A stretch of 64,000 bases of DNA from a candidate division WWE3 bacterium RIFOXYC1_FULL_40_10. GTDB lineage: Bacteria > Patescibacteriota > WWE3 > UBA101185 > UBA10185. Made by a program: the position numbers and the translations under genes. A model generated the notes under the pieces. The model had not been told where the DNA came from, made no database searches, and worked only from the letters and a program-made list of their open reading frames with translations. Positions within the stretch are counted from its first letter, which is position 1. Every line of letters starts with the position of its first letter. Shown one piece after another: positions 29,061 through 59,835 of the stretch. The stretch covers positions 322,473 through 386,472 of the forward strand of contig MEWB01000001.1 in assembly GCA_001773215.1 (NCBI GenBank), given 5' to 3'.

Positions 29061-29170
29061 ACGTACACTAAAGCTACTTTGAACACTTAATTCTAAAAAA
29101 ACTACTCAGTTTGTTGTCTAATGGCAGCGTAGCGCCCACTTAGACGACTCCCCAACGTACACTAAAGCTA
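29047..29170. repeat. 30-bp perfect direct repeat (29047-29076 and 29141-29170) duplicating the 5'-terminal 14 nt of tRNA-Gln plus 16 nt of upstream flank; the 64-bp spacer contains a tRNA-like D-arm fragment as an inverted repeat
   Basis: tagacgactccccaacgtacactaaagcta occurs twice; spacer contains gtctaatgg...ccacttagac. Confidence 0.7.
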
Positions 29171-29220
29171 TACAACATCACTGGCCTGCCAGCCGAAACC
29201 GAGCGATGCGAGGTGTAGGC

Positions 29221-29297
29221 TGGTGGGCGGTAATGGACTCGAACCAATGACCCCCGCGATGTAAACGCGGTGCTCTAACCAACTGAGCTAACCGCCC
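29221..29297 (-). tRNA. tRNA-Val (anticodon TAC)
   Basis: Acceptor GGGCGGT/ACCGCCC, D-arm GCTCAGTTGGTTAGAGC, anticodon loop TTTACAT, TTCGAGT T-loop, encoded CCA. Confidence 0.8.
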
Positions 29298-29415
29298 ACG
29301 ATACCAAAAACCTTTACTTAGCTAACCTGCCAGCCCTCCTCCGGCGCGTAAACCGGCGGGCAGGCCGCCCAAATAGCTACCCTATTTTATCATACTAAAA
29401 GTGAGAAATGGAAAA

Positions 29416-29970
29416 TTACTCCGGATCAGAAACAGTGCGAGTTACAAAACCGTTGCGAGCCATCTCAGAAATATAATTCATAACAGTTTCAGGCTCGTCA
29501 ATATTTCTAATATTTAACTCCCCTCCCCCCATAAATTTAACGCTAACCGTTCCAAAGCCAAGCATTTTTGCCATAAAAGTTTGTTCGAGAGTCATTCCAA
29601 CCATCCCTTTTAAATTACTCGCTCGGTGTCTTTTACTCCACACACCATCCACTATTACAATTTGGTCGGGAGTAATAATGTACGACTTTCCACGCCACCT
29701 CATTTTGCATGTTGTAGCCGAAACAAATAACAGGCCGGTAAACAGTAGCAATAAAAGAAAAATTAAAATCACAGATAGATATAAGGGAAACAATTTTGGG
29801 ATAAAAAAAGCAAAAAACACTATAAAAATTGCAAGCAAAAGCGTAATTGGAAAACAAAGGTTTACTAATTCTAATGAAAGTGATTTGGGCGACTGCTTTA
29901 TATGAATTTCTTGTACTTTATTGGTTTCCACCGATACTTCGATTATAGTTCCTTTGTCAAGACACTGCAA
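29416..29970 (-). CDS. membrane protein with bacterial PH (bPH_2/YdbS-like) domain
   Basis: Two TM helices followed by a ~90-aa domain (RWRGKSYIITPDQIVIVDG...VSVKFMGGGE) resembling the bPH_2 fold; tentative. Confidence 0.45.
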   Translation of the reverse strand: MQCLDKGTIIEVSVETNKVQEIHIKQSPKSLSLELVNLCFPITLLLAIFIVFFAFFIPKLFPLYLSVILIFLLLLLFTGLLFVSATTCKMRWRGKSYIITPDQIVIVDGVWSKRHRASNLKGMVGMTLEQTFMAKMLGFGTVSVKFMGGGELNIRNIDEPETVMNYISEMARNGFVTRTVSDPE

Positions 29971-30653
29971 TGATAATACTCCTTTGTAAAGAGTACTAAG
30001 TGTTCTATACCGCTTATCAAACTGGATTTGTTGCTGTATTGGCTTTCGTATAGAGTAATAGCTTTCAACTTTTTAAAGTATTGTTTCACAGATAGTGGAA
30101 GTATAACGGTTGGAGTGAGGGGTTTTATTAATTTTGGATTTTTTGCCATCGCAAGCCCCGCCTGTGGTATTTTGTAGCTCCTTGGTACTGTGGAATAAAC
30201 TAGGGATGTTTGAGTATATTTGGAAATGCTTGTTAACAATTCGCTCAAATAGACATGGTCCGGATGGCCATAGATTCCACAAGGTTCGTAGGTGACAATA
30301 TGTGTTGCTTTAAACTCTCGCACTTCTTGAGTTAGAAAGTCCCCAAGATTCAGCTCATTTTCAAGGTGCTTGTCCTTATACCCTAGTATTTCGTAACTTG
30401 GGACTCCCAAGAACTGCATAACCGAATCAAATTCCTTTTCTCGCACATCGGACAAAACACCTTTATATCTTCCAAAATAGAGAGTTGACGCTTCCCCTTT
30501 TGTTAGCACCATTACCTTAAATTTAACTCCGGCTTCAGATAACTCCTGTATCAACCCGGCATTAGCGAAAGTTTCATCGTCGGGATGGGGATAAATTAAT
30601 AGTACAGAAGATGCTTTAGTTATACCTAATTTCTGAAGGTCCTTAGTTTGCAC
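29943..30653 (-). CDS. PIG-L/LmbE family N-acetylglucosaminyl deacetylase
   Basis: Signature LLIYPHPDDETFANAG (HPDDE) plus downstream His motif HPDHV. Confidence 0.75.
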   Translation of the reverse strand: MQTKDLQKLGITKASSVLLIYPHPDDETFANAGLIQELSEAGVKFKVMVLTKGEASTLYFGRYKGVLSDVREKEFDSVMQFLGVPSYEILGYKDKHLENELNLGDFLTQEVREFKATHIVTYEPCGIYGHPDHVYLSELLTSISKYTQTSLVYSTVPRSYKIPQAGLAMAKNPKLIKPLTPTVILPLSVKQYFKKLKAITLYESQYSNKSSLISGIEHLVLFTKEYYHCSVLTKEL

Positions 30654-30659
30654 AAAGCT

Positions 30660-30938
30660 TTATTCCAAATCCGATATATCTTCTTTTGGTGTTGAGTCTA
30701 TATTCTCTACTAATTGGTCGAGTTCCTCGATAGCCGAATTATCAGCCTCTTTTGGAGTCTTGCTATCATCGTTCAATTTTGTGAATTCCTCTTCCTGATC
30801 AGGGTTAACTTGTATAAACCCGGGTTTATCACGATTAACCGAAAAATAATATGATAAAGCCAGTACTGCAAGGCCGATTGCTATTAAAATTATCAGGGGT
30901 AAATTTCCTTTTTGCTTAATCATTATCTTCCTCCACAT
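30660..30938 (-). CDS. small TM-anchored acidic protein
   Basis: ORF track; single TM then a D/E-rich tail; overlaps the upstream coiled-coil gene. Confidence 0.4.
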   Translation of the reverse strand: MWRKIMIKQKGNLPLIILIAIGLAVLALSYYFSVNRDKPGFIQVNPDQEEEFTKLNDDSKTPKEADNSAIEELDQLVENIDSTPKEDISDLE

Positions 30939-31437
30939 CTTGGTTTCTTAAATCAATTAAACTCTGTCTTAATGTGTGTGCATAGTAACTTCGAATTTCT
31001 TGGCGCTTCTCTATTGTTTTCTTTAGCTGTTCTCGTGCTTCCTTAAGTACGCCTTTGAATTGAGCTTCTGGTCCGTCACAAGTTAATTCTTCCGTATAGT
31101 TTAGAGACTTAATAAACTCCCCATAGGAATTATTGTATTCTTCTACCATCTTGTCGAATTCCTCTACATTGGCTCTAACTTCTGCTACATCGTATCCCTT
31201 ATCATCTAACTTATCTGCTATTTCTGTAATTTTTGATGAGATTTTTTTATAGTTAGTAGTGTGAACCTGTATATTATCCTCATATTTTCTCAGCCTCTCT
31301 GTAACTCGCTCTTGTACTTTTATACAGAGTTTTTCTAAAAGTTCCTCTTTCTTTTGATTACCTTGTGCGAAAACTACTCCAGCTGAAATTAACGAAAAAA
31401 GCATCGAAAACATTACTATTTTGGGATTTATTCTCAT
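30916..31437 (-). CDS. secreted coiled-coil protein
   Basis: Signal peptide; heptad-rich K/E sequence. Confidence 0.45.
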   Translation of the reverse strand: MRINPKIVMFSMLFSLISAGVVFAQGNQKKEELLEKLCIKVQERVTERLRKYEDNIQVHTTNYKKISSKITEIADKLDDKGYDVAEVRANVEEFDKMVEEYNNSYGEFIKSLNYTEELTCDGPEAQFKGVLKEAREQLKKTIEKRQEIRSYYAHTLRQSLIDLRNQDVEEDND

Positions 31438-31506
31438 GGAACTATTTTACACCAGCTATTGTATTCTGTAAAAAAATAACTAATAATTAATTGTTAAATA
31501 ATCACA

Positions 31507-32523
31507 ATGGAATCTACTAACGGTCAAAGTATTATAGAATTTAAACTGCCCTCGAGAGTGGGTATAATTTACAGCGACGCCAAACCGGAATACTTCCCTA
31601 CTGAACAGCAATACTTAACCGAAAAAGATTCATTTACTAACGCACAAGTAATCGCTGATGAGTTGAAGATTTTAAATATCGACTCGATTTTATACCCCGG
31701 AAACGAGTCACTTACCGAGTCATTGAGACGCGATAAACCGGAAATGATATTTAACTTGGTTGATTCAGTTAGAGGAAATGAATATTTGTCTTCGACCATT
31801 CCCGGTATTCTCGAGATGCTTGATATACCTTATGCAGGCGCGGGAATAATCGGATTTGCCCTTTGCTACAACAAGTTTTTGACCAAACAGCTTCTAAAAG
31901 CCGCCGGAATTCCTGTGCCAAATTGCCAGCTATTTGTGACTCCAAACGATCAGATAGATCTGGGGTTACGATTTCCTATAATTTCCAAACTAAACGAAAT
32001 ACACGGTGCTGTAGAAATTACTAAGTCTGCTGTATCTGAAAATGAAAAGGAGCTAAGGGAAAGATTGAAATACCTAATAGATACATATAAGCAACCTGTT
32101 GTTGCTGAAGAATTTATCGTTGGCAGAGAAATCGCAATAATTGTTATTGAGGGGCAAAATCGCAAGGTATACATGGGAGAAAAGGTCTTTAATAAACCCG
32201 ATGACAAGTATGTTTTTGCTACTTTTGAGGATCAGTGGTACGAGTCAATTTCAGAGCCCTTTACCTACGCCAGATTCGACGATGAGAAACTTAGAAATTA
32301 TGCCAGGAGAGCCTTTGATTTAACCAAAATGGCAGATTACGGCAAGTTTGATGTTCGTATGGACGCATCGGGGAGATACTACTTTATAGATGTAAATGCT
32401 AATCCCGCTTTTGGCCCAAAAAGACTTCAAACGAGCATGGGATATATCGTACAGGATCTATATGGAGTTACTTTCTCGGATATCTTAAAAAGGCTGATGA
32501 TTAATACTCTTTACGGTAATTAG
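31507..32523 (+). CDS. ATP-grasp domain protein (D-alanine--D-alanine ligase family-like)
   Basis: C-terminal ATP-grasp motif RMDASGRYYFIDVNANPAFGP; central IISKLNEIHGAVEI; ~338 aa. Confidence 0.55.
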   Translation: MESTNGQSIIEFKLPSRVGIIYSDAKPEYFPTEQQYLTEKDSFTNAQVIADELKILNIDSILYPGNESLTESLRRDKPEMIFNLVDSVRGNEYLSSTIPGILEMLDIPYAGAGIIGFALCYNKFLTKQLLKAAGIPVPNCQLFVTPNDQIDLGLRFPIISKLNEIHGAVEITKSAVSENEKELRERLKYLIDTYKQPVVAEEFIVGREIAIIVIEGQNRKVYMGEKVFNKPDDKYVFATFEDQWYESISEPFTYARFDDEKLRNYARRAFDLTKMADYGKFDVRMDASGRYYFIDVNANPAFGPKRLQTSMGYIVQDLYGVTFSDILKRLMINTLYGN

Positions 32524-33089
32524 ATTACCAGTAAACTAAACACCGCAAAATAAATCATTATACTTAAAGAATCCTGAACTACAGTCGCAATAGGACCACT
32601 CGCCTCGGCGGGATCCTCGTGAAGTTTCCAAAAAAAGTATGGGATTATCGACCCCGATATAAGTGCCGTGAAAGATGATATAAATATCGAAATCCCAAGT
32701 CCCATGGAAACTTTATGCTGTTGGTATAACACGTATGAAGTGCCATAGGCTAATAAGGATAGAACCAGGCCTATTACAGATACTATTTGTGTCTGGCGGA
32801 TTAAAAATGGGAGAAGTCTGAATTTCTTTTGTTTTGCAAAGTCTCTAATGATAATGCTTTCCATTTGGGTTCCGATTGCGTCTGCAAGATACACAATCAT
32901 TGGTACAAAGGTTATCATGATGATGTTTTTCTCAAGTGTTTCTTCAAATACACTAATAAACTTGGAAAGTAGTACGCTGGTAACCAATCCTAGAATAAGC
33001 CACGAGAGTCGTTTTTTAATTACCGCGAATATGCTTTGAGTTTCAGTTTCCATATTACAGAAATGATACCATTTATTACTTCTTATCAA
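32520..33089 (-). CDS. MgtE-like divalent cation transporter, membrane domain only (no N-terminal CBS/cytosolic domain)
   Basis: PMIVYLADAIGTQMESIIIRDFA resembles the MgtE TM-domain signature; five TM helices; 189 aa. Confidence 0.5.
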   Translation of the reverse strand: MIRSNKWYHFCNMETETQSIFAVIKKRLSWLILGLVTSVLLSKFISVFEETLEKNIIMITFVPMIVYLADAIGTQMESIIIRDFAKQKKFRLLPFLIRQTQIVSVIGLVLSLLAYGTSYVLYQQHKVSMGLGISIFISSFTALISGSIIPYFFWKLHEDPAEASGPIATVVQDSLSIMIYFAVFSLLVI

Positions 33090-33363
33090 ACCTCAAAACT
33101 CGTACAAAGACATATATTACAAAGGCGATAATTAGAAAGTCGATTAAAGTAGCCGCAAAGTGACCCCAGGTTATTTCAACAGGTCCTAGTTTTAGTACTG
33201 CTTGGTTCAAGGTTCCTGTAAAACCGAAAAATATGCCTAAAATCGGGTTGACGATATCAGTAACCAAAGCGCTAACTACCTTACCTACCGATGTTGCCAA
33301 TAAAAAGCCTATTGTTAACCCTAAAATATTTTGGTCCTTAATAAACTTTAGAAAGTTTTTCAT
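33076..33363 (-). CDS. mscL: large-conductance mechanosensitive channel MscL
   Basis: 95 aa; LGLTIGFLLATSVGKVVSALVTDIVNPILG and FLIIAFVIYVFV parallel the MscL TM1/TM2 consensus. Confidence 0.8.
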   Translation of the reverse strand: MKNFLKFIKDQNILGLTIGFLLATSVGKVVSALVTDIVNPILGIFFGFTGTLNQAVLKLGPVEITWGHFAATLIDFLIIAFVIYVFVRVLRFDKK

Positions 33364-33368
33364 ATATT

Positions 33369-33444
33369 TGGTGGGGAGGGAGGGAATCGAACCCTCATAG
33401 CCGGTTTTTCAGACCGGTGCCGTGACCGCCTTGGCTACCGCCCC
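33369..33444 (-). tRNA. tRNA-Phe (anticodon GAA); one C-T mismatch in the acceptor stem and an unusual D-arm
   Basis: Anticodon stem CCGGT/ACCGG, loop CTGAAAA, T-arm GAGGG-TTCGATT-CCCTC, 3' ACCA. Confidence 0.65.
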
Positions 33445-33548
33445 AAACTAAGACTATGTCATTTTATCAAAGAGTAGTTTATCTTACCATGAGATCAAAA
33501 AATAGCCCGGCTTAGTATTTTACTACTTTGCCGGGACTTAACGGTTTT

Positions 33549-33899
33549 CTAGTGAAACCGGTAAGGGTTATGGGTTATAAGCTCAAGGGGAATCGCCTTA
33601 TCCAACTCTTTACCAGCAAGCTCCTGGGTAGAGTACCAGCCTTCAAGATAATTGCCCAAATCGGTAAGGCCATCATCTACCTTGGAAGTGGTGTCTCCAC
33701 TTGTAACACTTAACTCCCCGGAGTCGCTCAGGGCTACCCTATACCCCTGTAACTCTGTACCTGTAGCATCAAGTAGTGTCCCATTTTCAGAAACCCGGTA
33801 CCTTGACCAGAAACCGGTTGGGTTGCTAACAGTAACCCATACTCGAACCAGAAATAACTCTCCTGCAGCTTTATTGGCCATACTACCCTCCTCACTCAC
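33549..33899 (-). CDS. hypothetical protein (GC-rich island)
   Basis: ORF track; GC clearly above background. Confidence 0.4.
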   Translation of the reverse strand: MSEEGSMANKAAGELFLVRVWVTVSNPTGFWSRYRVSENGTLLDATGTELQGYRVALSDSGELSVTSGDTTSKVDDGLTDLGNYLEGWYSTQELAGKELDKAIPLELITHNPYRFH

Positions 33900-33999
33900 T
33901 TACTATTAGGAAAATGTCACTGGATTATAGCATTTTTGACCGCACAGGTATTAATTGGTATATTGATCTCCACCAAAAATACTACTAAAGGAGAGTTCT

Positions 34000-35379
34000 A
34001 TGAACATTTGTGTTATTGGCACGGGATATGTGGGGCTAGTAGGCTCCGCTGTTTTTGCAGGGTGGGGAAATCAGGTTGTGGGAGTCGATGTCGACCAAGC
34101 CAAGCTGGATATGATTCAGGCTGGAGTGATGCCAATCTATGAGCCCGGTCTGCCTGAATTGGTTGCTCAAGGTATTAGGAGAGGTAACCTGCGTTTCACT
34201 AATTCCACTGCAGAAGGAATCAAGGATGCCGAGGTTATTTTTATCTGTGTGGGCACTCCACAAGGAGCCGCTGGTAATGCAGATCTATCCTCTGTGTTGC
34301 AGGTCGCGCGACAGATTGGCCAGAGCCTCGACCATTACGCGGTAGTAGTTACCAAGAGCACAGTTCCTGTGGGAACAAATCAACGGGTTAAGGAAATACT
34401 GCAAGAAACAACACAACAGGGTGTTCTATTTGACGTCGCCTCCTGCCCGGAATTTCTGGCCCAAGGCACATCTGTCTATGATATGGATCATCCGTCTCGT
34501 ACTGTGATCGGATCCGATTCACCCGAAGCCATTGAGCTAGTAGCGGAAGTTTTCAAGCATTTGCCAGCGGCAATCATTCGCTGCGGTTTTGCCGAGGCTG
34601 AATTGATAAAGTACGCCTCAAACGCACTACTTGCTACGAAAATTACTTTCGCAGATTCAATGGCCAGCCTTTGTGATCTTGTAGGTGCCGATGTTGTACT
34701 GGTAATGGATGCGGTAGGAAAGGATCCGCGTATCGGGGCGATGTTTTTGAGAGCCGGTCTTGGGTGGGGAGGTTCGTGTTTTCCCAAAGATGTCGAGGCG
34801 CTAGCCTATCTTGCAAGTCAACTTTCCTTGCCACTTCCACAGCTGGATGGCACGAGAAACACTAATCGACGGGTCCATAAGCGTTTCGTACACAAAATTA
34901 GTCTGTACTTCGATGGTAAGCTGGATGGAAAGACGTTCGCAGTTTTGGGACTGGCATTCAAAGCGGGAACCGATGATACACGTGAGTCGCCCGCAAAGAA
35001 AGTAATCATGCGTTTGCGTGGTGCCGGGGCTCGAGTCCGCGCTTATGACCCCAAGGCTACTGAGAAAGCAATCTTAGACCTTGGCACAACGTCTCTTGAG
35101 TACTGTGACAATCCATACGAAACTATGGCTGGGGCAGATGCGCTGGTAATCTTAACCGACTGGCCTGAATTTAAAGGATTGGACCTGTCACGAGTAAATT
35201 CCTTGCTCAAGAATCCCGTAATTTTCGATGGCCGTAACATGCTAGATCCAGAAACGGTTGAAAGGGAAGGCTTTATCTATTTTGCAATGGGCCGACCCAC
35301 AAATGGGCAACGCATTATTAATGGTAAAGATACTACCTACGTTGCGAAACTAACCAATGGAGCAGGATTGAATAAGTAG
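34000..35379 (+). CDS. ugd: UDP-glucose 6-dehydrogenase, full-length
   Basis: Rossmann VIGTGYVGLVGSAVFAGWG; catalytic GGSCFPKDVEAL; complete C-terminal UDP-binding domain; ~50% GC. Confidence 0.85.
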   Translation: MNICVIGTGYVGLVGSAVFAGWGNQVVGVDVDQAKLDMIQAGVMPIYEPGLPELVAQGIRRGNLRFTNSTAEGIKDAEVIFICVGTPQGAAGNADLSSVLQVARQIGQSLDHYAVVVTKSTVPVGTNQRVKEILQETTQQGVLFDVASCPEFLAQGTSVYDMDHPSRTVIGSDSPEAIELVAEVFKHLPAAIIRCGFAEAELIKYASNALLATKITFADSMASLCDLVGADVVLVMDAVGKDPRIGAMFLRAGLGWGGSCFPKDVEALAYLASQLSLPLPQLDGTRNTNRRVHKRFVHKISLYFDGKLDGKTFAVLGLAFKAGTDDTRESPAKKVIMRLRGAGARVRAYDPKATEKAILDLGTTSLEYCDNPYETMAGADALVILTDWPEFKGLDLSRVNSLLKNPVIFDGRNMLDPETVEREGFIYFAMGRPTNGQRIINGKDTTYVAKLTNGAGLNK

Positions 35380-35446
35380 CTTTAGGCAGCTTACAGATAT
35401 GAATAAGCCTCATGCATAAAAAACATGAGGCTATTATTTTTTCGTC

Positions 35447-36118
35447 TTATCCGGGGAATACTGCAAACCGTTCGTTCAAGGCCTTCCTCAAGTCACCATA
35501 AGTTTTGACTTTATGCGGGAAATACACACGAAGCCCGCATCTACGACATGAAAGAACATCTTGCTCTTTTGATGCTTGACGCCGATCTACCCACCCGTTA
35601 CAAAGGTCATGAACCCCCACGCAACAGGCGAGTTTAGCTTCGTCCGCGGTGTGTGTCACAAAGTATTCATAGCCGGCAAAAAGAGGTCGGGGCGGATATT
35701 CTCTGAGAAAATCTCCTTCCTCGGTAAGCTGAATGGGCATAAGAGGAACGCTTTTTAAGACCTGGGCGGTCACTTCCGCGATAAGTCTATCTCGATTTCT
35801 CAAAAAAGCTGTTGCAAGCCGAAATATATCGTTCAGCCATCCTGTTGCCATGTAATCTTCCCCATCCCTGCTAATTACTTTGTAAGGGAAATATCCGTTG
35901 ATACAGTACGTTTCTCCAGTCTTGCTTCCATCTTGATCTGTATAATGGCCGTAAAGCCGTCCAAGGGTGATAAGCTGAGGGTCAAATCCTGCAGCTTTAA
36001 CAATATCCTCCACAACTTTAAGCTCGGTATCTGACAAGTGCGTCTGATGTTCCCAACCTGTATCTTTATATTTCACTACCAAATCTGCAAAAGCGTTTAC
36101 AACAGAAGTAACTTCCAT
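35447..36118 (-). CDS. hypothetical protein with a C-terminal Cys cluster (CCVGVHDLC...SCRRCG); start re-set to MEVTSVV, which has an AAGGAG SD
   Basis: The track start at 36187 is a TTG that runs into tRNA-Gly; the internal ATG at 36116-36118 has a consensus RBS. Confidence 0.45.
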   Translation of the reverse strand: MEVTSVVNAFADLVVKYKDTGWEHQTHLSDTELKVVEDIVKAAGFDPQLITLGRLYGHYTDQDGSKTGETYCINGYFPYKVISRDGEDYMATGWLNDIFRLATAFLRNRDRLIAEVTAQVLKSVPLMPIQLTEEGDFLREYPPRPLFAGYEYFVTHTADEAKLACCVGVHDLCNGWVDRRQASKEQDVLSCRRCGLRVYFPHKVKTYGDLRKALNERFAVFPG

Positions 36119-36191
36119 TTCGATCTCCTTTCTTATATTAGTGTTCTGTGTTAAGGGATTTATACAAGTCAGTGGGAAGATAGTCAAATTT

Positions 36192-36266
36192 TGGAGCGGC
36201 GGACGGGGCTCGAACCCGCGACCTCTTCCTTGGCAAGGAAGCGTTCTACCACTGAACTACCACCGC
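36192..36266 (-). tRNA. tRNA-Gly (anticodon GCC)
   Basis: GCGGTGG acceptor, anticodon loop TTGCCAA, TTCGAGC T-loop, CCA encoded. Confidence 0.8.
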
Positions 36267-36289
36267 AAATTACCAAAATTATACCCTAT

Positions 36290-36364
36290 TGGAGGCCTGG
36301 GCGAGAATCGAACTCGCGTATAAGGGTTTTGCAGACCCTTGCCTTACCACTTGGCAACCAGGCC
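36290..36364 (-). tRNA. tRNA-Cys (anticodon GCA)
   Basis: GGCCTGG/CCAGGCC acceptor, anticodon loop CTGCAAA, TTCGATT T-loop. Confidence 0.8.
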
Positions 36365-36366
36365 GC

Positions 36367-36452
36367 TGGTGGGCGGGACAGGACTTGAACCTGCACGGGT
36401 TTTACCCCACAACGACCTCAACGTTGCGCGTATACCATTCCGCCACCCGCCC
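36367..36452 (-). tRNA. tRNA-Leu (anticodon GAG), long variable arm
   Basis: GGGCGGG/CCCGCCC acceptor, anticodon loop TTGAGGT, variable stem-loop GGGGTAAAACCC, TTCAAGT T-loop. Confidence 0.75.
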
Positions 36453-36478
36453 GAAACATAAGGTATTATACTATAGTT

Positions 36479-37294
36479 GTGCGACCAAAAGAACATATAG
36501 AACTAATAAAAGGCCGTGCCTATAAATATTTCGACTACGGAGGTGACAAACCAGTGGTAATTTTGTTGCATGGTATGTATGTCACCAAAAGTAATATGGA
36601 AGATATTGCCCAGGATTTATCGACAAAATTTAGGTGTGTGGCACTAGATCTCCCCGGTCACAACAAGGTATCACTCAAAAAGATAACAAAATTTGATGAC
36701 CTGGCTGACTACGTACTCATGTTCATCAAGAAAAAGCAATTTAAAGAAGTATATTTAGTTGGCTACTCCTTAGGAGGGCTAATTTCCTTAAAAATTGCCG
36801 AGAAAGCGGATAATACAAAAATGGTAAAAGGATTAGTTGTTTGGTCGGCACCGATTCTAGGTTTCCAGCACGGACTTACCAGAGTTGCAAAGCTAGCCAT
36901 TCCAATATCAAAAATCATTCCGGAAAAAGTTTACCTAGCAGTTGTAACCAACGATATTCTAAATAAGCTTATAGCCTCGGTTTATAGTAAAGCAGATCTA
37001 TTTATAAAGCCTATGAAGGGCACTCTTTCGGCATTATCGTTAAGGGACGCCGTGAAATTAATTGATATTAGTGTAAACGTTAGCTTCGATTTTCCGAAAA
37101 GTGTCCCTACCCTATTTGTATTCGACAAACGAGATCCCCTAGTAAGCTACAAAAACTATCGGCACTCAAAAGAACATTTTGAGAGCGGGAGTTTGATTGT
37201 GGCTACAATTCATAAATCCGGCCATTTTAGGGATTACGAAGGTTACTCAAGTTTGAGGAAGGAGATTCAAAGGTTCTTGACTGAAAACCTGTAG
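36479..37294 (+). CDS. alpha/beta-fold hydrolase
   Basis: Nucleophile elbow VGYSLGG; HGMYV oxyanion region; C-terminal His. Confidence 0.7.
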   Translation: MRPKEHIELIKGRAYKYFDYGGDKPVVILLHGMYVTKSNMEDIAQDLSTKFRCVALDLPGHNKVSLKKITKFDDLADYVLMFIKKKQFKEVYLVGYSLGGLISLKIAEKADNTKMVKGLVVWSAPILGFQHGLTRVAKLAIPISKIIPEKVYLAVVTNDILNKLIASVYSKADLFIKPMKGTLSALSLRDAVKLIDISVNVSFDFPKSVPTLFVFDKRDPLVSYKNYRHSKEHFESGSLIVATIHKSGHFRDYEGYSSLRKEIQRFLTENL

Positions 37295-37295
37295 A

Positions 37296-37405
37296 TGGTG
37301 CCGAGAGAGGGACTTGGTCACCGGTTCTCGCCTGGAGGCGATCCCGTCGACCCCACCTCGCCGCCGTCGCGGCTGCGGCATTCAAGTCCGTTAAATTTCC
37401 ACTTA
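37296..37405. mobile_element. miniature GC-rich element: a 21-bp copy of the tRNA-Leu(CAG) 3' end (37296-37316) plus an 87-bp GC-rich segment homologous to the left arm of the tRNA-Lys serine-recombinase element, immediately before the intact tRNA
   Basis: tggtgccgagagagggacttg occurs at 37296 and again as the tRNA 3' end at 37406; the following gtcaccggttctcgcctg...cccgtcgacccc...ggcattc aligns with 39744-39830. Confidence 0.6.
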
Positions 37406-37491
37406 TGGTGCCGAGAGAGGGACTTGAACCCTCACGTCCGTTAGGACACTGCCACCTGAAGACAGCGCGTCTGCCATTTCGCCATCTCGGC
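37406..37491 (-). tRNA. tRNA-Leu (anticodon CAG), long variable arm
   Basis: GCCGAGA/TCTCGGC acceptor, anticodon stem CTGTC/GGCAG with loop TTCAGGT, TTCAAGT T-loop, CCA encoded. Confidence 0.75.
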
Positions 37492-39332: not shown

Positions 39333-39668
39333 GTGGCTATTTTACCTAACGAGATTTCCCTTGAACCAAGAGATTCGTGTGAACATGCATTTGGAGGTTT
39401 CTTCGGAAAGTTCGAAATGGATTGGGTTGCGCAGTTTATCGTTACCTTGTGTACCAAGAGTAACACTTGGCGTAAGTTTACACTAAGTGAAGTTCTTTCC
39501 GTTGGCCGGCAGTCGACCCCTCGGATTGACGACGATTACATTATCGAGGGTGTCAGGTTGTTGTGGTACTACGGCTGGATAGAGCTTGTCGACGTCCTGG
39601 AGTTCGAAGCGAAGGATATCTTCATTACGCGGTGTGTGGAAAAAACAAAGGAATACAGCTCAAAGTAG
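39333..39668 (+). CDS. hypothetical protein
   Basis: ORF track; followed by a strong terminator. Confidence 0.4.
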   Translation: MAILPNEISLEPRDSCEHAFGGFFGKFEMDWVAQFIVTLCTKSNTWRKFTLSEVLSVGRQSTPRIDDDYIIEGVRLLWYYGWIELVDVLEFEAKDIFITRCVEKTKEYSSK

Positions 39669-39683
39669 CTAATATATCTCACA

Positions 39684-39717
39684 GACAAGTGCCGTAAAAA
39701 GTACTTGTCTTTTTTTT
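39684..39717 (+). terminator. Rho-independent terminator
   Basis: gacaagtgccgtaaaaagtacttgtc followed by tttttttt. Confidence 0.6.
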
Positions 39718-39929
39718 GGTGATGGTGAGGACGGTGGGATTCGGTCACCGGTTCTCGCCTGCTGGCTCGCCCGTCGACCCCGCCTCCTTCGCCTTCGCCC
39801 AGTCCGGCATTCTCACCCACCTCTTCTGCCAGTTGGTGTATCTGTTTGCCTGGTGGGATAACATTACGTTCCCCGAAGTGAATTATACAACAAAGTACCC
39901 TTTAACCCTTACCTACGAGGATATAGACA

Positions 39930-40247
39930 GTGCAATGGTCAGAATTGGAAGTAGAGTCTATGTGTAGGCTGTATAATAACTTTATGCAGGGTATACAGAC
40001 AAAAGACGCACAAGAGTTTGACCCCAATGTGTTGGAGGAAATTGTAGTAGTAGATTATTCGGAACCGGATGTAATTAAGTCCATATACTCACCAACGCTA
40101 TTTCCGCACCTTAAATTGACTACCAATGCCGTTAGCAGAGACATTGAAGTTGTTGTTGTATCAACGGAAAACGAAGATAAGCAATTACTCCACAAACTTC
40201 TGACGGAAACAAGAACGGCTCGTAATTATGTTTTGAATAAGTGCTGA
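39930..40247 (+). CDS. hypothetical protein (element cargo)
   Basis: ORF track only. Confidence 0.35.
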   Translation: MQWSELEVESMCRLYNNFMQGIQTKDAQEFDPNVLEEIVVVDYSEPDVIKSIYSPTLFPHLKLTTNAVSRDIEVVVVSTENEDKQLLHKLLTETRTARNYVLNKC

Positions 40248-40249
40248 AA

Positions 40250-40381
40250 ATCCACGATTTTCCATTATTCTCCATTAAAGTTACCTGTATTCGCGACCTA
40301 CTTAAAACCCAGTATTTCCACCATATTCCACCATTTTGTTTTCCACCAAAGTCCACCAAAGTTGCCACCATTAGCCATCAT
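40250..40381. repeat. iteron-like array of about nine TCCAYYA heptamers (TCCACCA x4 core) at ~9-15 bp spacing in a convergent intergenic region of the element
   Basis: tccacga, tccatta, tccatta, tccacca, tccacca, tccacca, tccacca, gccacca, gccatca read directly. Confidence 0.55.
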
Positions 40382-40423
40382 TTTGTATTTAAGTATTTTT
40401 TTGCAAGTATTAGTCTTTTGAAG

Positions 40424-40810
40424 TTAAATATGTTCTTGTTCTTTGACGGTGTTTTCGGTTTCAACATTACCTGTGTTTAAGGTTGTTCGTGGCTCAATAA
40501 GCACGATTTGGACTTCCTCCGGTGCTTCCGGTTTATGTTCAACTAATTTTGGTATGATTACGAATTCCCCTTCATTTACCTCCACCGTTCTATCTCTAAA
40601 ATGTATCAGTAACTTTCCAGTTATAACCCAAAACAGTTCTTCCTCTTTTTCGTGGTGGTGCCAATGAAACTCTCCTTTTAGTTTTACAACTTGAACTTTG
40701 TCGTCATTTAGTTCACCCACTATCTTTGGATTCCAGTGTTCGGTAAATTTGTTAAGTTTTTCTTTTATGTTTACAACTTTTACGTTTTTGGAGTTACTTA
40801 TAGGTTCCAT
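40424..40810 (-). CDS. cupin domain protein
   Basis: Cupin motifs GEFHWHHHEKEEELFWVITG ... GEFVIIPKLVEHKP. Confidence 0.7.
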   Translation of the reverse strand: MEPISNSKNVKVVNIKEKLNKFTEHWNPKIVGELNDDKVQVVKLKGEFHWHHHEKEEELFWVITGKLLIHFRDRTVEVNEGEFVIIPKLVEHKPEAPEEVQIVLIEPRTTLNTGNVETENTVKEQEHI

Positions 40811-40835
40811 AGTAAGGTTATTATAGAATATCTAT

Positions 40836-41228
40836 ATGTCTTTTGAAATAACTGGAATACATCATATTGAATTTACAGTTACCGACTTGGAACAATCTAA
40901 AAGATTTTATTCCAAATTTCCGGGATTTAAGGTAGTTGCGGAGTATCCAAATTTCGTAATGTTTCAAGCAAACGAGTTTTATTTAGGGTTGACCGACCAT
41001 AAAGGTTGTGTTACAAACGACAAATTTAGTGAATTTAACGTGGGTTTAGACCATTTAGCATTTGGGGTTAGTTCTTTGGAAGATTTACGTGAGGTAGCAA
41101 GTTTTTTAGATTCTCAAAAAATCCCTCATTCGGAGATAAATGTACTTTCAAATGGCACCCACATTTTTACTTTTCGGGACCCGGACAATATACAGTTGGA
41201 ATTTGCTTATAAGCCCGGAATATTTTAA
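40836..41228 (+). CDS. VOC/glyoxalase/bleomycin-resistance family protein
   Basis: ITGIHHIEFTVTDLEQSKRFYSKFPGFKVV, a typical VOC beta-alpha-beta-beta-beta module. Confidence 0.7.
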   Translation: MSFEITGIHHIEFTVTDLEQSKRFYSKFPGFKVVAEYPNFVMFQANEFYLGLTDHKGCVTNDKFSEFNVGLDHLAFGVSSLEDLREVASFLDSQKIPHSEINVLSNGTHIFTFRDPDNIQLEFAYKPGIF

Positions 41229-41278
41229 GACTTACCACCTACTATTGATTGTACAAAAAATGTTAGGTTTTATCAGGT

Positions 41279-41650
41279 TCAGATGCTGCTTTTTAGTAAC
41301 TCGTGAAGCCATTTGAATAGTCTGCTAGGTAGTTGGTCAAGACTATCTACAATGAGTTTAACTTTGTCAGTCTCACCCATTTTTTCCAACTGTTCTGCCT
41401 CGCGTTGAAGCACCTCTTTTAATACATTAAAGGCTCCGTGGATAAGGTTTGCCCGTGTTTCGTGCTGTTTTTCTTTGTGGTAAAGCCAAACTGCTGTCAA
41501 TATAAGCAATACGCCCAGTCCGTTGTTAACAAAGTATTGCCAGTTGTCCGGTGCAGTCTTTAATGAGGTTGACGCAATAACTATGTTACCTCCAACTGCA
41601 CAGGCAAGTTCTAACACATTACTAATTTTTATGTTCATGGGTATGTTCAT
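41279..41650 (-). CDS. small membrane protein, hypothetical
   Basis: ORF track; two TM helices. Confidence 0.4.
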   Translation of the reverse strand: MNIPMNIKISNVLELACAVGGNIVIASTSLKTAPDNWQYFVNNGLGVLLILTAVWLYHKEKQHETRANLIHGAFNVLKEVLQREAEQLEKMGETDKVKLIVDSLDQLPSRLFKWLHELLKSSI

Positions 41651-41712
41651 CTACTGCATTATACCGCAATAAGTTACCGCAGGTAGGGTATTACTTACAA
41701 AAAGGGGAAAGG

Positions 41713-42090
41713 TTATTTATCGCCAAAAAACTGTAAGATGTTCCCTTCCGGGTCTGCAATAGTCATACACCAAAAACCGCCGGGAGGACCTTCAAAAGGC
41801 TCTGCAATAATATTTACGTCCTTGTCTTTAAGTTCGTTGTAAATACCACTGACACTATCAACATTGAGATTTATCATGATTCTGTAAGGGTCCTTGCTTT
41901 TCCCGTGTACTTTATCGTGTTTGCCTACATAAAAGTATGAAGGCTCAAATTTGAAATCCACACCAGTATCATCTGGTAAAGTAAGCCTTTGTGAAACAGT
42001 AAAACCAAGAACGTCTTCGTACCACTTTGCCAGTTTTTCGTAATCATCTGACCAAATACAAACAGAAATAATATTGTCTTTGAGTTTCAT
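41713..42090 (-). CDS. VOC/glyoxalase family protein
   Basis: ISVCIWSDDYEKLAKWYEDVLGFTV; 125 aa. Confidence 0.7.
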   Translation of the reverse strand: MKLKDNIISVCIWSDDYEKLAKWYEDVLGFTVSQRLTLPDDTGVDFKFEPSYFYVGKHDKVHGKSKDPYRIMINLNVDSVSGIYNELKDKDVNIIAEPFEGPPGGFWCMTIADPEGNILQFFGDK

Positions 42091-42252
42091 ATAGTAATAT
42101 TATACGAGAATGTAAGTTTCTTGCATAGACTTAACAATCAGGTCAGTGTATTCTAACCCGACTACAGTGTGGAAGGAAAGGTTGTTTATCTTGCGGAGCG
42201 TACCGGACTTTTTTGTTTCAATACAACTTACGATATATTATAATCATCTTAT

Positions 42253-42462
42253 ATGGGCATAAAATTTGGCGAAATAGATGCAACTCAAATTCTTGATAAC
42301 GAGTTTCGTGTTAAATTCACAGCGTTTCTTGTTGAATGGCTATTTGATAACAATCCCCAATTAAAAAAACCCACACCCGAGGAAATTAAAGCATTACAAG
42401 AAGCCGTCATTAAGGAACTCCAAAAAAAGTATCCAAATTCTGGGATTAAACTTCAACAATGA
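42253..42462 (+). CDS. small hypothetical protein upstream of the recombinase (possible directionality/accessory factor)
   Basis: ORF track; 4-nt overlap with the next ORF. Confidence 0.3.
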   Translation: MGIKFGEIDATQILDNEFRVKFTAFLVEWLFDNNPQLKKPTPEEIKALQEAVIKELQKKYPNSGIKLQQ

Positions 42463-42827
42463 AACCAAATGAATCCAATGAACAACAAGAAAAAGTGAAA
42501 GGTATACTTGCTTCTGCAAAACGTGCTGAATTGTTAGATAGAGGGGTTACTGTTGAACACCGCACGGATTGGGAAAAGATTGGGCAACGGATTGGAATTA
42601 TTGTTTCGGTCATTACTATTTTAAGTTTTATATTTTCCTGTATGGTTTTTCTGTATACAATCCAAAAGGATATGCGTGATTATTACGACCAGCAACTCAA
42701 CCGTGTTATAGATTTAACAAACCGACAAACAAAAATGGAAACTCAAATAGAAACGCTACAAAAACAAATAACCAACGATTGTATAATTACACAGCCGAGT
42801 CAACCAAACCAGCCTCAAAGCAAATGA
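42459..42827 (+). CDS. small TM + coiled-coil protein
   Basis: ORF track; one TM helix then a heptad region. Confidence 0.35.
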   Translation: MKPNESNEQQEKVKGILASAKRAELLDRGVTVEHRTDWEKIGQRIGIIVSVITILSFIFSCMVFLYTIQKDMRDYYDQQLNRVIDLTNRQTKMETQIETLQKQITNDCIITQPSQPNQPQSK

Positions 42828-42908
42828 CACCGCATAAGCCGTAACCGAGTTTAAGTCTACTGTATCTAAACATCCCCGCCACTTCGTAGTAACATACTCT
42901 TATATCGT

Positions 42909-44717
42909 ATGCCGACATTAAACTCACAAGACAAACCAGTTAAAGTAGCCTATTACCTACGAGTAAGCACGGATGACCAGATTGACCGTTATGGTATTGC
43001 ACTTCAAAAAAGGTCATTGGATGCCATTGTAGCCTCTCGTGGGACTCTTGAAGATGGAAAGACGAACGCATTACAACTCGCCGGAGAACAATACATCTAC
43101 AAAGATGAAGGTGTCAGTGGAACCATACCACTGGAAGACAGACCGGCTTTTGCGAGACTTCAAGAAGATGTTGTAAATGCACCGGACGGAGAAAAACCGT
43201 TTGATATTGTTGCCGTTTACAAAATTGACCGTTTTGCCCGAAAATTAAAGATTTTACTTGACGTCATTGAGTTCTTTGAGAAATACGGGATTAAGTTCAT
43301 ATCCGTACATGAGAGTATTGACACTTCAACTCCATTTGGGAGGGCGATTTTAGGGATTGTTGGTGTGTTGTCAGAACTTGAAATGGAAACGATAGCAATG
43401 CGAACCAGAGCCGGCAAAGAGGAAGCGATTGCAAAAGGTGTTTTCATGGGGAAAGTACCTCCATACGGCTATATCAAAGATACTGAACGAAGGCTTAAAG
43501 TGCTACCAAAAGAGGCAGAAATTGTGAACGTGATATTTGAAAAGTTTGTGGTTGAAAGGTTGCCGTTACAGGCTATATGCCGGTATTTAGAAGATAACAA
43601 GATTGAATCACCCGGAGTAACAGCAGTAACCAATCAAAAGCGTAAAGGCGGTATATCAAAGAAAAGCAACCCGTTCTTTTGGGCGACACCAATGATAAAA
43701 AACATACTTGGAGATGAAATCTATCTTGGAAAATACTACTACAACAAGACAAAGGGTAGAAAACATTTACCGAAAGCGGAGTGGAAATTGTCTGTATACA
43801 GATACGAGGCGATAGTTGATACCATCACCTTTGCGAAAACTCAAACACTGCTTGAAAACAGAAAGATATTCAATGTGGTGAGACATGACGACAAGCATAT
43901 TTACCTTTTAAGCGGTTTACTGAAATGTGCCTGTTGTTACAACCCGGAAAGAGACAAAAACGAAGGTATGCAAACATTGCATGGTGAACCAAAAGAAATC
44001 CACAAAGGTAGCCAGCACTATACTTACTACTACAAATGCAGAAGGAAAACTACTGCAAAAACCTCAATCAGATGCGGTTCGCTTCCCTTACCGGCTGAAC
44101 AAATTGAGAAATATGTTATTGAGAGACTCCGGGAACTTCTCACTGACCCAAAAGCAGTGTTTAATTATCAACTAAAATTAAGGTCAACAGAACAGGAACT
44201 TAAAAGGCTAAATACGGATTATGATATGATTCGCCGATTAAAAAATGGTCTACCACAAAGAAAATCAAACCTAAAAGAACAGCAAGAATACAGCTATATT
44301 ACCTCAAAAGAACTTACCGAGAAACTCAATGCACTTGATTCACAAGAAAAAGAGTATGACGGGAAACTGGCAGAGTGGGAAGCAAAAATATCAGAAACTA
44401 AACTAGACGAAGGTTACATCAAGAGTTTTGAAATCTTTGAAAAACAATACAAGAAGGCTTTGGAAGACATAAATAGCAACAGAGAAACATTACAACAATT
44501 ACTTCGGATGATAGTTGACAAGATAGTTGTTCACTCCCGACCAGTTAAGGAAGGAGACATTATAGCCGGAAGAAAAACCGGAGACCAACAGGTGCCGTAT
44601 AAAATAGAAATGAAACTACATTTGCCACAAGAGTATCTCAAACTTTTAGAAGCAAAAGCCAACGAAGCATGGGTCAACAGACCGGAGGAGTTCGGGGATA
44701 AAAATGTTAACTGGTGA
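42909..44717 (+). CDS. large serine recombinase (resolvase N-domain + recombinase domain + zinc ribbon + coiled coil)
   Basis: Catalytic-serine motif YYLRVSTDDQ; resolvase-domain motif DRFAR; Cys cluster CACC...C...C; ~600 aa typical of LSR integrases. Confidence 0.85.
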   Translation: MPTLNSQDKPVKVAYYLRVSTDDQIDRYGIALQKRSLDAIVASRGTLEDGKTNALQLAGEQYIYKDEGVSGTIPLEDRPAFARLQEDVVNAPDGEKPFDIVAVYKIDRFARKLKILLDVIEFFEKYGIKFISVHESIDTSTPFGRAILGIVGVLSELEMETIAMRTRAGKEEAIAKGVFMGKVPPYGYIKDTERRLKVLPKEAEIVNVIFEKFVVERLPLQAICRYLEDNKIESPGVTAVTNQKRKGGISKKSNPFFWATPMIKNILGDEIYLGKYYYNKTKGRKHLPKAEWKLSVYRYEAIVDTITFAKTQTLLENRKIFNVVRHDDKHIYLLSGLLKCACCYNPERDKNEGMQTLHGEPKEIHKGSQHYTYYYKCRRKTTAKTSIRCGSLPLPAEQIEKYVIERLRELLTDPKAVFNYQLKLRSTEQELKRLNTDYDMIRRLKNGLPQRKSNLKEQQEYSYITSKELTEKLNALDSQEKEYDGKLAEWEAKISETKLDEGYIKSFEIFEKQYKKALEDINSNRETLQQLLRMIVDKIVVHSRPVKEGDIIAGRKTGDQQVPYKIEMKLHLPQEYLKLLEAKANEAWVNRPEEFGDKNVNW

Positions 44718-44786
44718 GGACGGTGGGATTCGAACCCACGACCAAGGGATTAAGAGTCCCCTGCTCTACCACTGAGCTACGTCCCC
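44712..44786 (-). tRNA. tRNA-Lys (anticodon CTT)
   Basis: GGGGACG acceptor, GCTCAGTGGTAGAGC D-arm, anticodon loop CTCTTAA, TTCGAAT T-loop, CCA encoded. Confidence 0.8.
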
Positions 44787-44901: not shown

Positions 44902-45297
44902 ATGAACTATATAATAACTCATGCATGGAAAACTCTTCCGAGTAAACTCTTAGTGAAGTTTGAATTTATGTTAAGTGATTCCGTTCATTTCATGTCAGCA
45001 GAAAGCGTTAAGAATATGCTTAGCCAAGTACCGATGTGCGTGTTTGAGCATATTCCATACGAGATAACAGGTAAGAGCCCTTATGAATTGACAGTGCGGT
45101 TTATAGATTTTCTTACAAGGATAGAAATTAACTGCCCGCCATCATGTTTTAACGGCATGCCAGCTTTACCTGTTTTTATTCTCTGTTACCTGGAATTGTA
45201 TAAAAGCAGTTACGTTTACCCAGTGGGTATGAATAATTGGTTGTGTGATATGAAAAGTGCCGGGTACTTGGCAGAAAATGGAGTGAAAAATGGCTAG
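44902..45297 (+). CDS. hypothetical protein, first of a tandem paralogous pair
   Basis: C-terminal YPVGMNNWLCDMKSAGYL parallels YPMGLTQLLNFLVDKGYL of the next ORF. Confidence 0.4.
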   Translation: MNYIITHAWKTLPSKLLVKFEFMLSDSVHFMSAESVKNMLSQVPMCVFEHIPYEITGKSPYELTVRFIDFLTRIEINCPPSCFNGMPALPVFILCYLELYKSSYVYPVGMNNWLCDMKSAGYLAENGVKNG

Positions 45298-45691
45298 ATA
45301 CTCAATTACCGAAAAAGGCCTTAAAACAGAACGTTGCCCTGCCGGAGCTTTGACGTTATTCCAGCAAGTATTAAGAAATATACGGCAGATTAACACCAAA
45401 GAGGATTTTACCCTCTGGCTATCAGATAACAGCTCTTATTTCGTCAAGTTTATGGGGATCGACTGGGAGCTAATTGGGCCGCTGAATAGGAATGTCGGTG
45501 AGGTCATTACGCGGCTTGAAGAGGTTGAAGTATTGACCGGTTCCCGTACTGAAAGCGTACCTGCATGGTTATATTTTGTTCACCAGGTTGTATGTTACTA
45601 CGCTCTTAACAAAGCCGGTCTGTACCCAATGGGTCTCACCCAACTGTTGAACTTTCTGGTTGACAAGGGGTATCTACAGGCCTCAGATTAG
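45290..45691 (+). CDS. hypothetical protein, second paralog (C-terminal motif weakly reminiscent of BlaI/CopY winged-helix recognition helix)
   Basis: 8-nt overlap with the previous ORF; LTQLLNFLVDKGYL resembles TLLNRLVKKGFL of the BlaI/CopY family, but at the C-terminus rather than the N-terminus. Confidence 0.4.
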   Translation: MARYSITEKGLKTERCPAGALTLFQQVLRNIRQINTKEDFTLWLSDNSSYFVKFMGIDWELIGPLNRNVGEVITRLEEVEVLTGSRTESVPAWLYFVHQVVCYYALNKAGLYPMGLTQLLNFLVDKGYLQASD

Positions 45692-59732: not shown

Positions 59733-59835
59733 TGGCGCCCCCAAGAGGATAATGGTCGAACTCTTTTTGAAAAGCTATATGGCTATTTCAGCAAAAGAGA
59801 TTTGCAAGTTTATACTTCCTAGAGATAAACAAAAA

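Follow-up and report, generated by a model that had tools for sequence, protein, structure and literature searches.

The window analysed here is a 64,000-nucleotide stretch of contig MEWB01000001.1 from the candidate division WWE3 bacterium RIFOXYC1_FULL_40_10, a tiny groundwater bacterium of the candidate phyla radiation (CPR). This organism and its close relatives, with contigs of up to ~0.9 Mb, are the hosts of a small integrative element at a tRNA-Lys(CTT) gene, which is built around a large serine recombinase (LSR). The chromosomal sequence ends on the left with an intrinsic terminator, and the same left flank is found in all contigs of the species. The features that define the locus, including open reading frames (ORFs) with lengths in amino acids (aa) and the attachment (att) sites, are the following:

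39683–39718, plus strand: host intrinsic terminator of the left-flank gene (111-aa ORF, 39333–39668), from a stem-loop and T-run scan.
39723–39743, minus strand: displaced 21-bp copy of the tRNA-Lys 3' end, part of a GC-arm mini-insertion, from the exact repeat and a parallel at tRNA-Leu(CAG).
39744–39850, no strand: GC-rich arm of 107 bp, from blastn and alignment.
39851–39878, plus strand: attL, with the core TGGTG(G) at 39851–39856 and the P' arm GATAACATTACGTTCCCCGAAG at 39857–39878; the true left end, from the start of homology and as the mirror of the P arm.
39851–39967, plus strand: tail frame WWDNITFPEVNYTTKYPLTLTYEDIDSAMVRIGSRVYV and stop, 38 codons after TGGTGG, in the LSR frame, from reconstruction, the fused protein P0009 and tail homologues.
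42909–44717, plus strand: LSR, short (integrated) form of 602 aa, from Pfam, phrog_95 and a family alignment.
44690–44716, plus strand: attR, with the P arm GTTCGGGGATAAAAATGTTAAC at 44690–44711 (LSR codons FGDKNVN) and the core TGGTG at 44712–44716; the right end.
44712–44786, minus strand: intact tRNA-Lys(CTT), called by ARAGORN.

We read positions 39851–44716 as an LSR integrative element at tRNA-Lys(CTT) with attP inside the LSR reading frame, with interchangeable cargo and with the 21-bp repeat as a separate matter; the probability that we give to this reading is about 0.8. The element measures 4,861 bp, and its 5-bp core TGGTG is the complement of C72-A73-CCA of the tRNA. The original prediction, made from the letters alone, had placed an integrative element at this tRNA with the 21-bp repeats as its ends. 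An LSR element does lie there, whereas its ends are those given here, and the crossover site inside the recombinase reading frame had been missed.

The product of ORF 42909–44717 is a large serine recombinase, in which the catalytic, recombinase and zinc-ribbon/coiled-coil parts are all present. It matches LSR families, with the Pfam domains Resolvase (PF00239, 9.3e-30, 104 bits), Recombinase (PF07508, 1.8e-17, 63.9 bits, cut-off 21.1) and Zn_ribbon_recom (PF13408, 9.1e-07, 29.6 bits, cut-off 25.3), and the integrase family phrog_95 (2.8e-98). The motif YYLRVSTDDQ, already noticed in the letters, is present, and the nucleophile Ser20 lies within YLRVSTDDQ. Across an alignment of 25 LSR homologues, R18, S20, T21, Q24, D107, R108 and R111 are invariant, as are the zinc-ribbon residues C340, C343, C377 and C389. 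An AlphaFold2 (AF2) model was available for P0009, a 48%-identical homologue and not the window protein; it is confident to about residue 578, and its long helices 430–465 and 471–503 between beta elements form a coiled coil. Searched at full length with Foldseek, this model matches the SPbeta, Bxb1, PhiC31 and A118 integrases (top matches 9dxd/9y66, 9iu2, 9rah and 4kis). The stop codon lies inside the tRNA, as already noticed: the last two codons are TGG-TGA (TGA at 44715–44717), and the tRNA end ...TCACCA supplies both.

The boundaries were drawn from relatives, that is, contigs carrying close homologues of the window LSR. L011 has a 96% identical LSR with an internal in-frame stop and lies in a different genome at a different tRNA-Lys(CTT). 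L012 (LSR 90%) carries ABC-transporter (ABC-2) cargo behind a fourth left flank. L094, L096 and L100 (LSR 79%, P0003 on L094) carry a radical-SAM/SPASM cargo behind a third, unrelated flank; L094 belongs to the WWE3 RBG_16_37_10 lineage, and L100 is inserted at tRNA-Leu(TAG). Homology of the window with all five starts exactly at TGGTGG (39851), behind four different left flanks; that between L011 and the window begins exactly at TGGTGGGATAACATT, and L011 is without a long copy of its own tRNA end. L097, a 4,556-bp contig, holds the same element as L094 (shared 87-aa core-ORF protein P0128 and cargo). It starts with ATAACATTACG... and finishes with ...AAAAATGTTAAC, and its terminal sequences (ATAACATT... 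at the start, ...AATGTTAAC at the finish) delimit exactly one element, with a break close to the core on either side. The contig of P0009, L099, is apparently circular: its ends overlap by 26 bp, the closed sequence measures 4,435 bp, and an ORF runs on without a stop where the ends meet. Because of the shared start at 39851, L097 and the apparently circular L099, the element ends are placed at the TGGTG(G) core.

The alternative already put forward by the original prediction takes 39723–44732 as the element, with the 21-bp repeats as attL and attR, a crossover in the T-loop and the GC arm as the element's own left arm. It has the perfection of the repeat on its side: TGGTGAGGACGGTGGGATTCG occurs exactly twice in the window (39723–39743 and 44712–44732, identical over 21/21 positions) against 0 expected in shuffles, so that chance is not at issue and the reported identity of the two copies stands. 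The repeat corresponds to tRNA positions ~56–76 (part of the T-loop, the 3' strand of the T-stem, the 3' strand of the acceptor, A73 and the encoded CCA), and a duplication from T-loop to CCA is the classical signature of tRNA-integrating islands. Furthermore, L012 also has a GC arm immediately left of its element. This alternative implies a circle that contains the GC arm, an empty site ...TTTTGGTGA-TGGTGAGGACGGTGGGATTCGAACCC and attP reads joining 44711, the 21 bp and 39744; its junctions would be an empty site without the arm, ...TTTTTGGTGA-TGGTGAGGACGG...TTCGAACCC, and an attP with the arm, ...GTTAAC-21 bp-GTCACCGG....

What decides against the repeats as att sites is that L011, L094, L096 and L100 have no arm and share homology only from TGGTGG, that L097 and L099 place the ends at the core, and that the arm recurs elsewhere in the window with no recombinase. 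The GC content is ~0.5 at 39400–39800 and ~0.37 nearby, and the first ~70 bp of the arm are conserved with window 37317–37385 and with L012:1–70 (blastn, alignment). The copy at 37317 stands at tRNA-Leu(CAG), where a 22-bp 3'-end copy (37295–37316, ATGGTGCCGAGAGAGGGACTTG) is followed by GTCACCGGTTCTCGCC...GGCATTC.... There the duplicates (37295–37316 and 37405–37426) lie only 110 bp apart, an 88-bp GC-rich, hairpin-rich segment lies between them, and no recombinase is present within 37295–37426. At tRNA-Arg(TCG) (59732–60522) a 19-bp 3'-end copy, ATGGCGCCCCCAAGAGGAT, lies 772 bp downstream and brackets 754 bp. The T-loop-to-CCA duplication therefore belongs to another insertion type, as tRNA-Leu(CAG) and tRNA-Arg(TCG) show likewise. 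In addition, 36–48 bp of unrelated sequence separate the conserved arm part from TGGTGG when the window is compared with L012, and serine recombinases neither need nor create long identity. We consider it very improbable that the 21-bp repeats are the ends of the LSR element. By the Islander-type definition, the integrase does lie beside an intact tRNA, but the displaced tRNA fragment is not at the distal end of the same element.

In our reading, 39723–39850 (the 21-bp copy and the GC arm) is an older, unrelated mini-insertion into the same tRNA. The LSR element sits between this relic and tRNA-Lys, having had the right end of the arm as the B arm of its attB. For the origin of the arm, a relic of a tyrosine-integrase island, a mini-element resembling miniature inverted-repeat transposable elements and a structured RNA are all candidates. 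An Rfam scan of 39400–40500 with E up to 10 gave noise only, folding of the arm on both strands gave z-scores of −0.85 and −1.45 (not significant), and a 20-mer of the arm had 0 matches in IMG/VR. RNAalifold on the three arm copies returned hairpins with 3–4 compensatory pairs, too few sequences to conclude from. At L012:5930–5990, and also in L013, the element end TGGTGAGAGACCGTTCAAATTTGGTCACC is not called a tRNA by ARAGORN and is followed by the heptamer GGTCACC of the GC-arm start; this end may represent a pseudo-attB, used as a secondary site, or reflect nesting. The 19-bp copy at tRNA-Arg(TCG) overlaps the last stop-codon base of a 2,675-aa GH94 gene, and the duplicates there bracket a 161-aa ORF (59886–60371, minus strand) with no Pfam match and no recombinase.

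When the two ends of the LSR element are joined, the rebuilt attP, GTTCGGGGATAAAAATGTTAAC-TGGTGG-GATAACATTACGTTCCCCGAAG, is an imperfect palindrome of ~50 bp. It is the best dyad of a 12-kb scan (14/20, runner-up 12; 16/22 by hand count), and the dyads rebuilt for two distant relatives, symmetric in this same register, reach 14/20 in L015 and 12/21 in L014. Hand counts place an outer motif GTTC(G/C)GGG 25 nt from the centre in both arms of L014 and L015, and the T-loop GTTCGAA of the target tRNA at 21 nt, 4 nt further in than the attP motif. A register shift between attB and attP is known from the A118 and Bxb1 models, which the positions of GTTCG (21 nt in attB', 25 nt in attP, by hand count) resemble. 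Under the established LSR model the 4-nt inward shift would fit the expected attB half-site, and the acceptor and T-arm of tRNA-Lys are the B' arm of attB.

The identity between attB and attP is limited to TGGTG. In the proposed mechanism, the LSR inserted the element right at the 3' terminus of tRNA-Lys(CTT). The left arm of attP is formed by the last eight sense codons of the LSR and the right arm by the opposite end of the integrated map; attB consists of the tRNA acceptor and T-arm (B') and of whatever sequence lies downstream of the tRNA (B). Strand exchange would take place within the common TGGTG, probably at the central GT, the exact dinucleotide being deduced. As C72-A73-CCA is all that the two sites have in common, the tRNA is left whole and no long repeat arises. 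Excision of the LSR element would then give the attP junction ...AAAAATGTTAAC-TGGTGG-GATAACATTACG... and an empty site that keeps the GC arm, ...ATCTGTTTGCC-TGGTGA-GGACGGTGGG....

Because attP lies within the LSR reading frame, the circular form would encode a 639-aa enzyme with a conserved 37-aa tail, as reconstructed by joining LSR and tail in frame, compared with 602 aa in the integrated state. Integration would detach the tail (...WDNITFPEV..LTYEDIDSAMVRIG...), and the ...TCACCA of the tRNA would supply TGG-TGA and so yield the 602-aa form. The tail is a conserved peptide in the LSR frame in five subfamilies; homologues in L014, L015 and L017 are in frame, that of L017 by our own reading of the sequences once joined. 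The tails of the window and of L012 differ by 8 synonymous and 4 non-synonymous codon changes. A hidden Markov model (HMM) of the tail matches the L014 homologue, which was not used in building it, beside a core that matches the attR of L014 and in frame on reconstruction. In L017 the HMM gives a weak, non-significant match (E = 0.04) beside the presumed attL, in frame by our own reading, and a profile search of 1.84 billion proteins returned the further tails P0129 and P0130. Moreover, a natural fusion of LSR and tail exists: P0009 (657 aa, ending ...NWWDKSFDCEVSPLGIVLTYDDVDVSLVRIGNRYSN) surfaced on inspection of the C-termini of the homologues, and in its contig L099 LSR, TGGTGG, tail and core ORF are contiguous, with no tRNA. 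A word-based protein search with a chimera of the LSR C-terminus and the tail had returned no fused protein. That attP lies within the gene is thus seen in two ways, in that integration changes the C-terminus of the LSR and in that the fused form exists in nature.

Serine integrases recombine attP with attB in one direction, and excision needs a directionality factor. The two isoforms described above might be unequal in activity or directionality. Integration would fall to the long form, and the short form would be inert or prone to excision, possibly aided by the 87/105-aa core ORF; a small element could thus steer direction without a classical, separately regulated directionality factor. That the state of the DNA dictates the isoform and acts as a built-in directionality switch (circle, tail-bearing and integration-competent; integrated, tail-less and inert or excision-competent) is put forward tentatively, and we would not bet on it. 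If true, it would be a mechanism not described for serine integrases, and no LSR with attP inside its own gene came to light in our literature search.

Several observations weigh against the reading of 39851–44716 given here. L012 has a GC arm beside its element, and that element ends at a non-tRNA site. P0009 is the only natural LSR-tail fusion that was recovered. The tail is unstructured in the AF2 model (predicted local distance difference test, pLDDT, <40, with a shallow alignment), and therefore no structural role can be argued for it. The tails end in ..RVYV, ..RACV, ..RYSN, ..SSRF and ..RVSV, with no LAA-like (ssrA-type) tag among them. The tail frame of the window is open back to an ATG at 39722, so that an independent 81-aa product, called as protein P0121, is possible. 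Finally, no empty site was found: 49 contigs, obtained by exact-protein look-ups with the LSR, the left 111-aa ORF and the right 131-aa ORF, are all occupied, and the exact attP junction GTTAACTGGTGGGATAACAT had 0 matches in JGI metagenome contigs and IMG/VR.

The ATG at 39722 bears on whether the tail belongs to the recombinase at all. It might instead be a small gene of its own, or DNA that is conserved as such (the P' arm and the promoter of the next ORF), with its frame incidental. The first ~9 tail codons coincide with the P' arm and hence are under constraint at the DNA level, and an extended −10-like sequence, TGTATAAT, overlaps the end of the tail. Such an origin is improbable in our view, for the frame relative to the LSR is kept in the five divergent subfamilies, and the motif LTY.DID.AMVRIG persists despite DNA divergence, even in L012, where the following promoter is missing. 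In L094 and L100, furthermore, a stop lies 4 codons upstream of TGGTGG with no start codon between, and the fused protein P0009 joins tail and enzyme.

The occupied sites raise a different question, namely whether the element is an immobile relic, fixed and domesticated in the WWE3 lineage, with the tail as a functionless leftover. All inspected contigs of the species are occupied and no junctions of the excised form were found, so the window copy may be fixed or only rarely excised; the in-frame stop in the LSR of the close relative L011 points the same way. Against a relic speak the full-length window LSR with all catalytic and zinc-binding residues, the intact and symmetric att arms, and the conservation of the tail at the protein level across subfamilies. 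Elements whose LSRs are 79–96% identical occupy tRNA-Lys, tRNA-Leu(TAG) and a non-tRNA site and differ in their cargo; this implies recent mobility of the subfamily. The relic reading is accordingly judged unlikely, if the least so of the alternatives weighed. The subfamily occurs in at least four different contexts and at two different tRNAs, and the 48% relative is the apparently circular contig. Taken together, the intact enzyme, the att arms and the contexts of the subfamily suggest that the window copy could still be mobile.

The first search with the LSR gave 427 homologues, mostly 45–50% identical, and the named ones are from CPR (WWE3, Levybacteria, Minisyncoccia). Phage and plasmid LSRs are at most 24–29% identical to the window LSR. 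In reference genomes, the LSR runs into an opposite-strand tRNA in 7/7 loci (at least seven family loci, among the matches listed), the targets being Lys-CTT (two), Lys-TTT, Gly-TCC, Gly-CCC and Val-TAC (two). The same holds for L011, L095 and L100, and 11 of the 12 loci that show the LSR 3' end, the window included, abut a tRNA, with L012 as the exception. Many LSR homologues end in translated antisense tRNA (DSNP or GFEPW motifs). This is an undescribed CPR-wide LSR clade that targets tRNA ends, with an unusual arrangement of gene and att site.

Some loci of the clade deserve separate mention. An LSR-only element of 1.8 kb in L014, with a palindrome at 9953 as attL, was considered and rejected, as the tail HMM places the real attL at 5662. 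At L014:9953–9976 there is a P'-like half-site, AAGGGTAAGTTACCCAGAAC, 48 bp upstream of the LSR start codon; it might serve autoregulation as a binding site, or be the remnant of an att site. In L020:863–4773, four copies of the tRNA-Val 3'-terminal core ATGGTGGA(CGA) lie upstream of the LSR, which suggests that several elements or relics have accumulated in tandem at a single tRNA. In the Rifle scaffold L005 (4880–5000), an N-gap lies in tRNA-Lys, and the LSR-proximal half is joined to a variant 5' end (GGGGGCG...) and has another flank upstream; the identical element may have a second host context here, unless this is a scaffolding artefact.

The LSR shares the resolvase, recombinase and zinc-ribbon plus coiled-coil parts with the integrases of SPbeta (SprA), Bxb1, PhiC31, A118 and TP901-1, and phage LSRs likewise use short, imperfectly palindromic att sites around a central dinucleotide. 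Unlike the phage LSRs, the window element targets a tRNA 3' end and has attP in the coding sequence of its own enzyme, and the elements of this group are tiny (1.8?–9 kb), with no phage or conjugation genes and no recognisable directionality factor. SSV1-type archaeal integrases are tyrosine recombinases with attP within the int gene. As in the WWE3 element, attP falls within the gene of the recombinase, a tRNA gene is the target, and the recombinase gene is divided on integration. The archaeal gene, however, breaks into two large pieces without function, whereas here 37 codons are lost and an intact catalytic protein remains. SCCmec Ccr and XisF, the best NCBIfam models, are also LSRs of non-phage elements, with a conserved gene as target, at its 3' end; the window LSR scores 98–108 bits against equivalog cut-offs of 375–900, and their targets are rlmH and fdxN.

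The tRNA islands and tycheposons are likewise small cargo elements at tRNA genes, among which LSRs are a minority (27/937 tycheposon-like elements carry an LSR). They regenerate the tRNA by a long duplicated segment, whereas the WWE3 element crosses over at the CCA end with five common bases, and here an entire CPR LSR clade is devoted to tRNA ends. That LSRs at tRNA genes are uncommon, as the original prediction had remarked, agrees with a survey in which 14/297 S-Int elements lie at t(m)RNA genes, 'not reported previously', against 44.5% for tyrosine integrases (PMC7192596), and a large LSR survey is without any mention of tRNA (PMC10083194). The closest parallel to the truncation is the integration-dependent immunity of cluster G/N/P mycobacteriophages (BPs, Brujita; Broussard et al. 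2013, summarised in PMC9262239), in which attP lies in the repressor gene, which is truncated at a tRNA. The two systems have in common that attP is in frame, that integration into a tRNA removes a C-terminus, that the host supplies the stop and that there is no directionality factor. The phages use a tyrosine integrase, cut the repressor, have a core of ~35 bp and lose an ssrA-like tag, whereas the WWE3 element interrupts the gene of its own serine recombinase, has a core of 5 bp and a tail without such a tag.

Serine integrases are major genome-engineering tools, and their choice of direction is a central question for the field. A clade with attP in its own gene and two state-specific isoforms would offer a simple, testable alternative to a separate directionality factor, and it runs counter to the working rule by which tRNA genes are shunned by serine integrases. 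The conserved T-arm/acceptor target suggests a wide host range within CPR/Patescibacteria; the CPR are almost without genetic tools, and an attP/attB pair of ~50 bp at a tRNA end could become one. For annotation, the lesson is that a perfect tRNA-fragment repeat beside a recombinase need not delimit the element of that recombinase.

The remaining features lie between the tail and the LSR:

39930–40247, plus strand: conserved core ORF, 105 aa (87 aa from ATG 39984), from alignment and ORF 3205–3480 of L099.
40262–40395, plus strand: direct repeats of TCCACCA(W), clustered after the core ORF, with exact copies at 40317, 40327, 40342 and 40352 and degenerate ones.
40424–40810, minus strand: cupin-fold protein, 128 aa (Pfam Cupin_2, 2.5e-11; no specific NCBIfam assignment).
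40836–41228, plus strand: VOC/glyoxalase-fold protein, 130 aa (Pfam Glyoxalase, 1.3e-11).
41279–41650, minus strand: hydrophobic protein, 123 aa, from the ORF list, with weak sub-threshold matches only.
41713–42090, minus strand: second VOC/glyoxalase-fold protein, 125 aa (Pfam Glyoxalase, 2.1e-13).
42253–42827, plus strand: a pair of small ORFs that overlap, of 69 aa and of 122 aa, the latter with a single hydrophobic segment.

All elements of the subfamily have the core ORF, as does the apparently circular relative L099. It has no Pfam, PHROG, NCBIfam or PADLOC match and only 4 database homologues, and a related-locus search with the 87-aa form gave only 3 loci. We regard it as a candidate regulator or directionality factor. 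Similar TCCACCA repeats occur in L011, L012 and L097 and are possible protein-binding/operator sites or iterons. The conserved core of the subfamily comprises the LSR, the tail, the 87/105-aa ORF and the TCCACCA cluster.

The GC-rich arm, the cupin, the two VOC genes, the hydrophobic protein and the two small ORFs named by the original prediction are all present between the 21-bp repeats. The 69- and 122-aa ORFs are counted as cargo because they are not conserved and related elements carry other genes in their place. The cargo is not conserved core content, since relatives with 79–96% identical LSRs carry different cargo in different contexts. In related elements the cargo is an ABC-2 transporter, a radical-SAM/SPASM enzyme or a type I restriction-modification system, or is nearly absent; what lies between the LSR and the core ORF plus repeats is therefore an interchangeable module. 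The idea that the cargo serves detoxification or resistance found no backing beyond membership of the VOC and cupin families. The 130-aa VOC protein, in which candidate His/His/Glu metal ligands can be picked out by eye (an unaligned reading), falls far below the NCBIfam cut-offs, its best scores being 43.5 bits for a YaeR-like model (cut-off 140) and 37.4 for a Fos model (cut-off 180). The second has no NCBIfam match better than 19.6 bits, so that neither VOC protein reaches the curated cut-off for a Fos, Ble or GloA equivalog, and PADLOC assigned no gene to a defence system. L095:432–7093, with a 56% identical LSR, carries a complete type I restriction-modification system (HsdR/S/M) together with DUF2806 and DUF4268, and the cargo of these elements therefore includes defence genes.

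Right of tRNA-Lys, at 44902–45691, two small ORFs of 131 and 133 aa are weak mutual paralogues (26% identity, E = 6e-4) without family assignment. A paralogy of the small ORFs that flank the insertion on both sides was considered and rejected for the left ORF (E = 4). The window has nine tRNAs, all on the minus strand; besides tRNA-Lys, seven of them (Gln, Val, Phe, Gly, Cys, Leu-GAG and Leu-CAG) lie at 28987–37491, within 8.5 kb upstream of the element.

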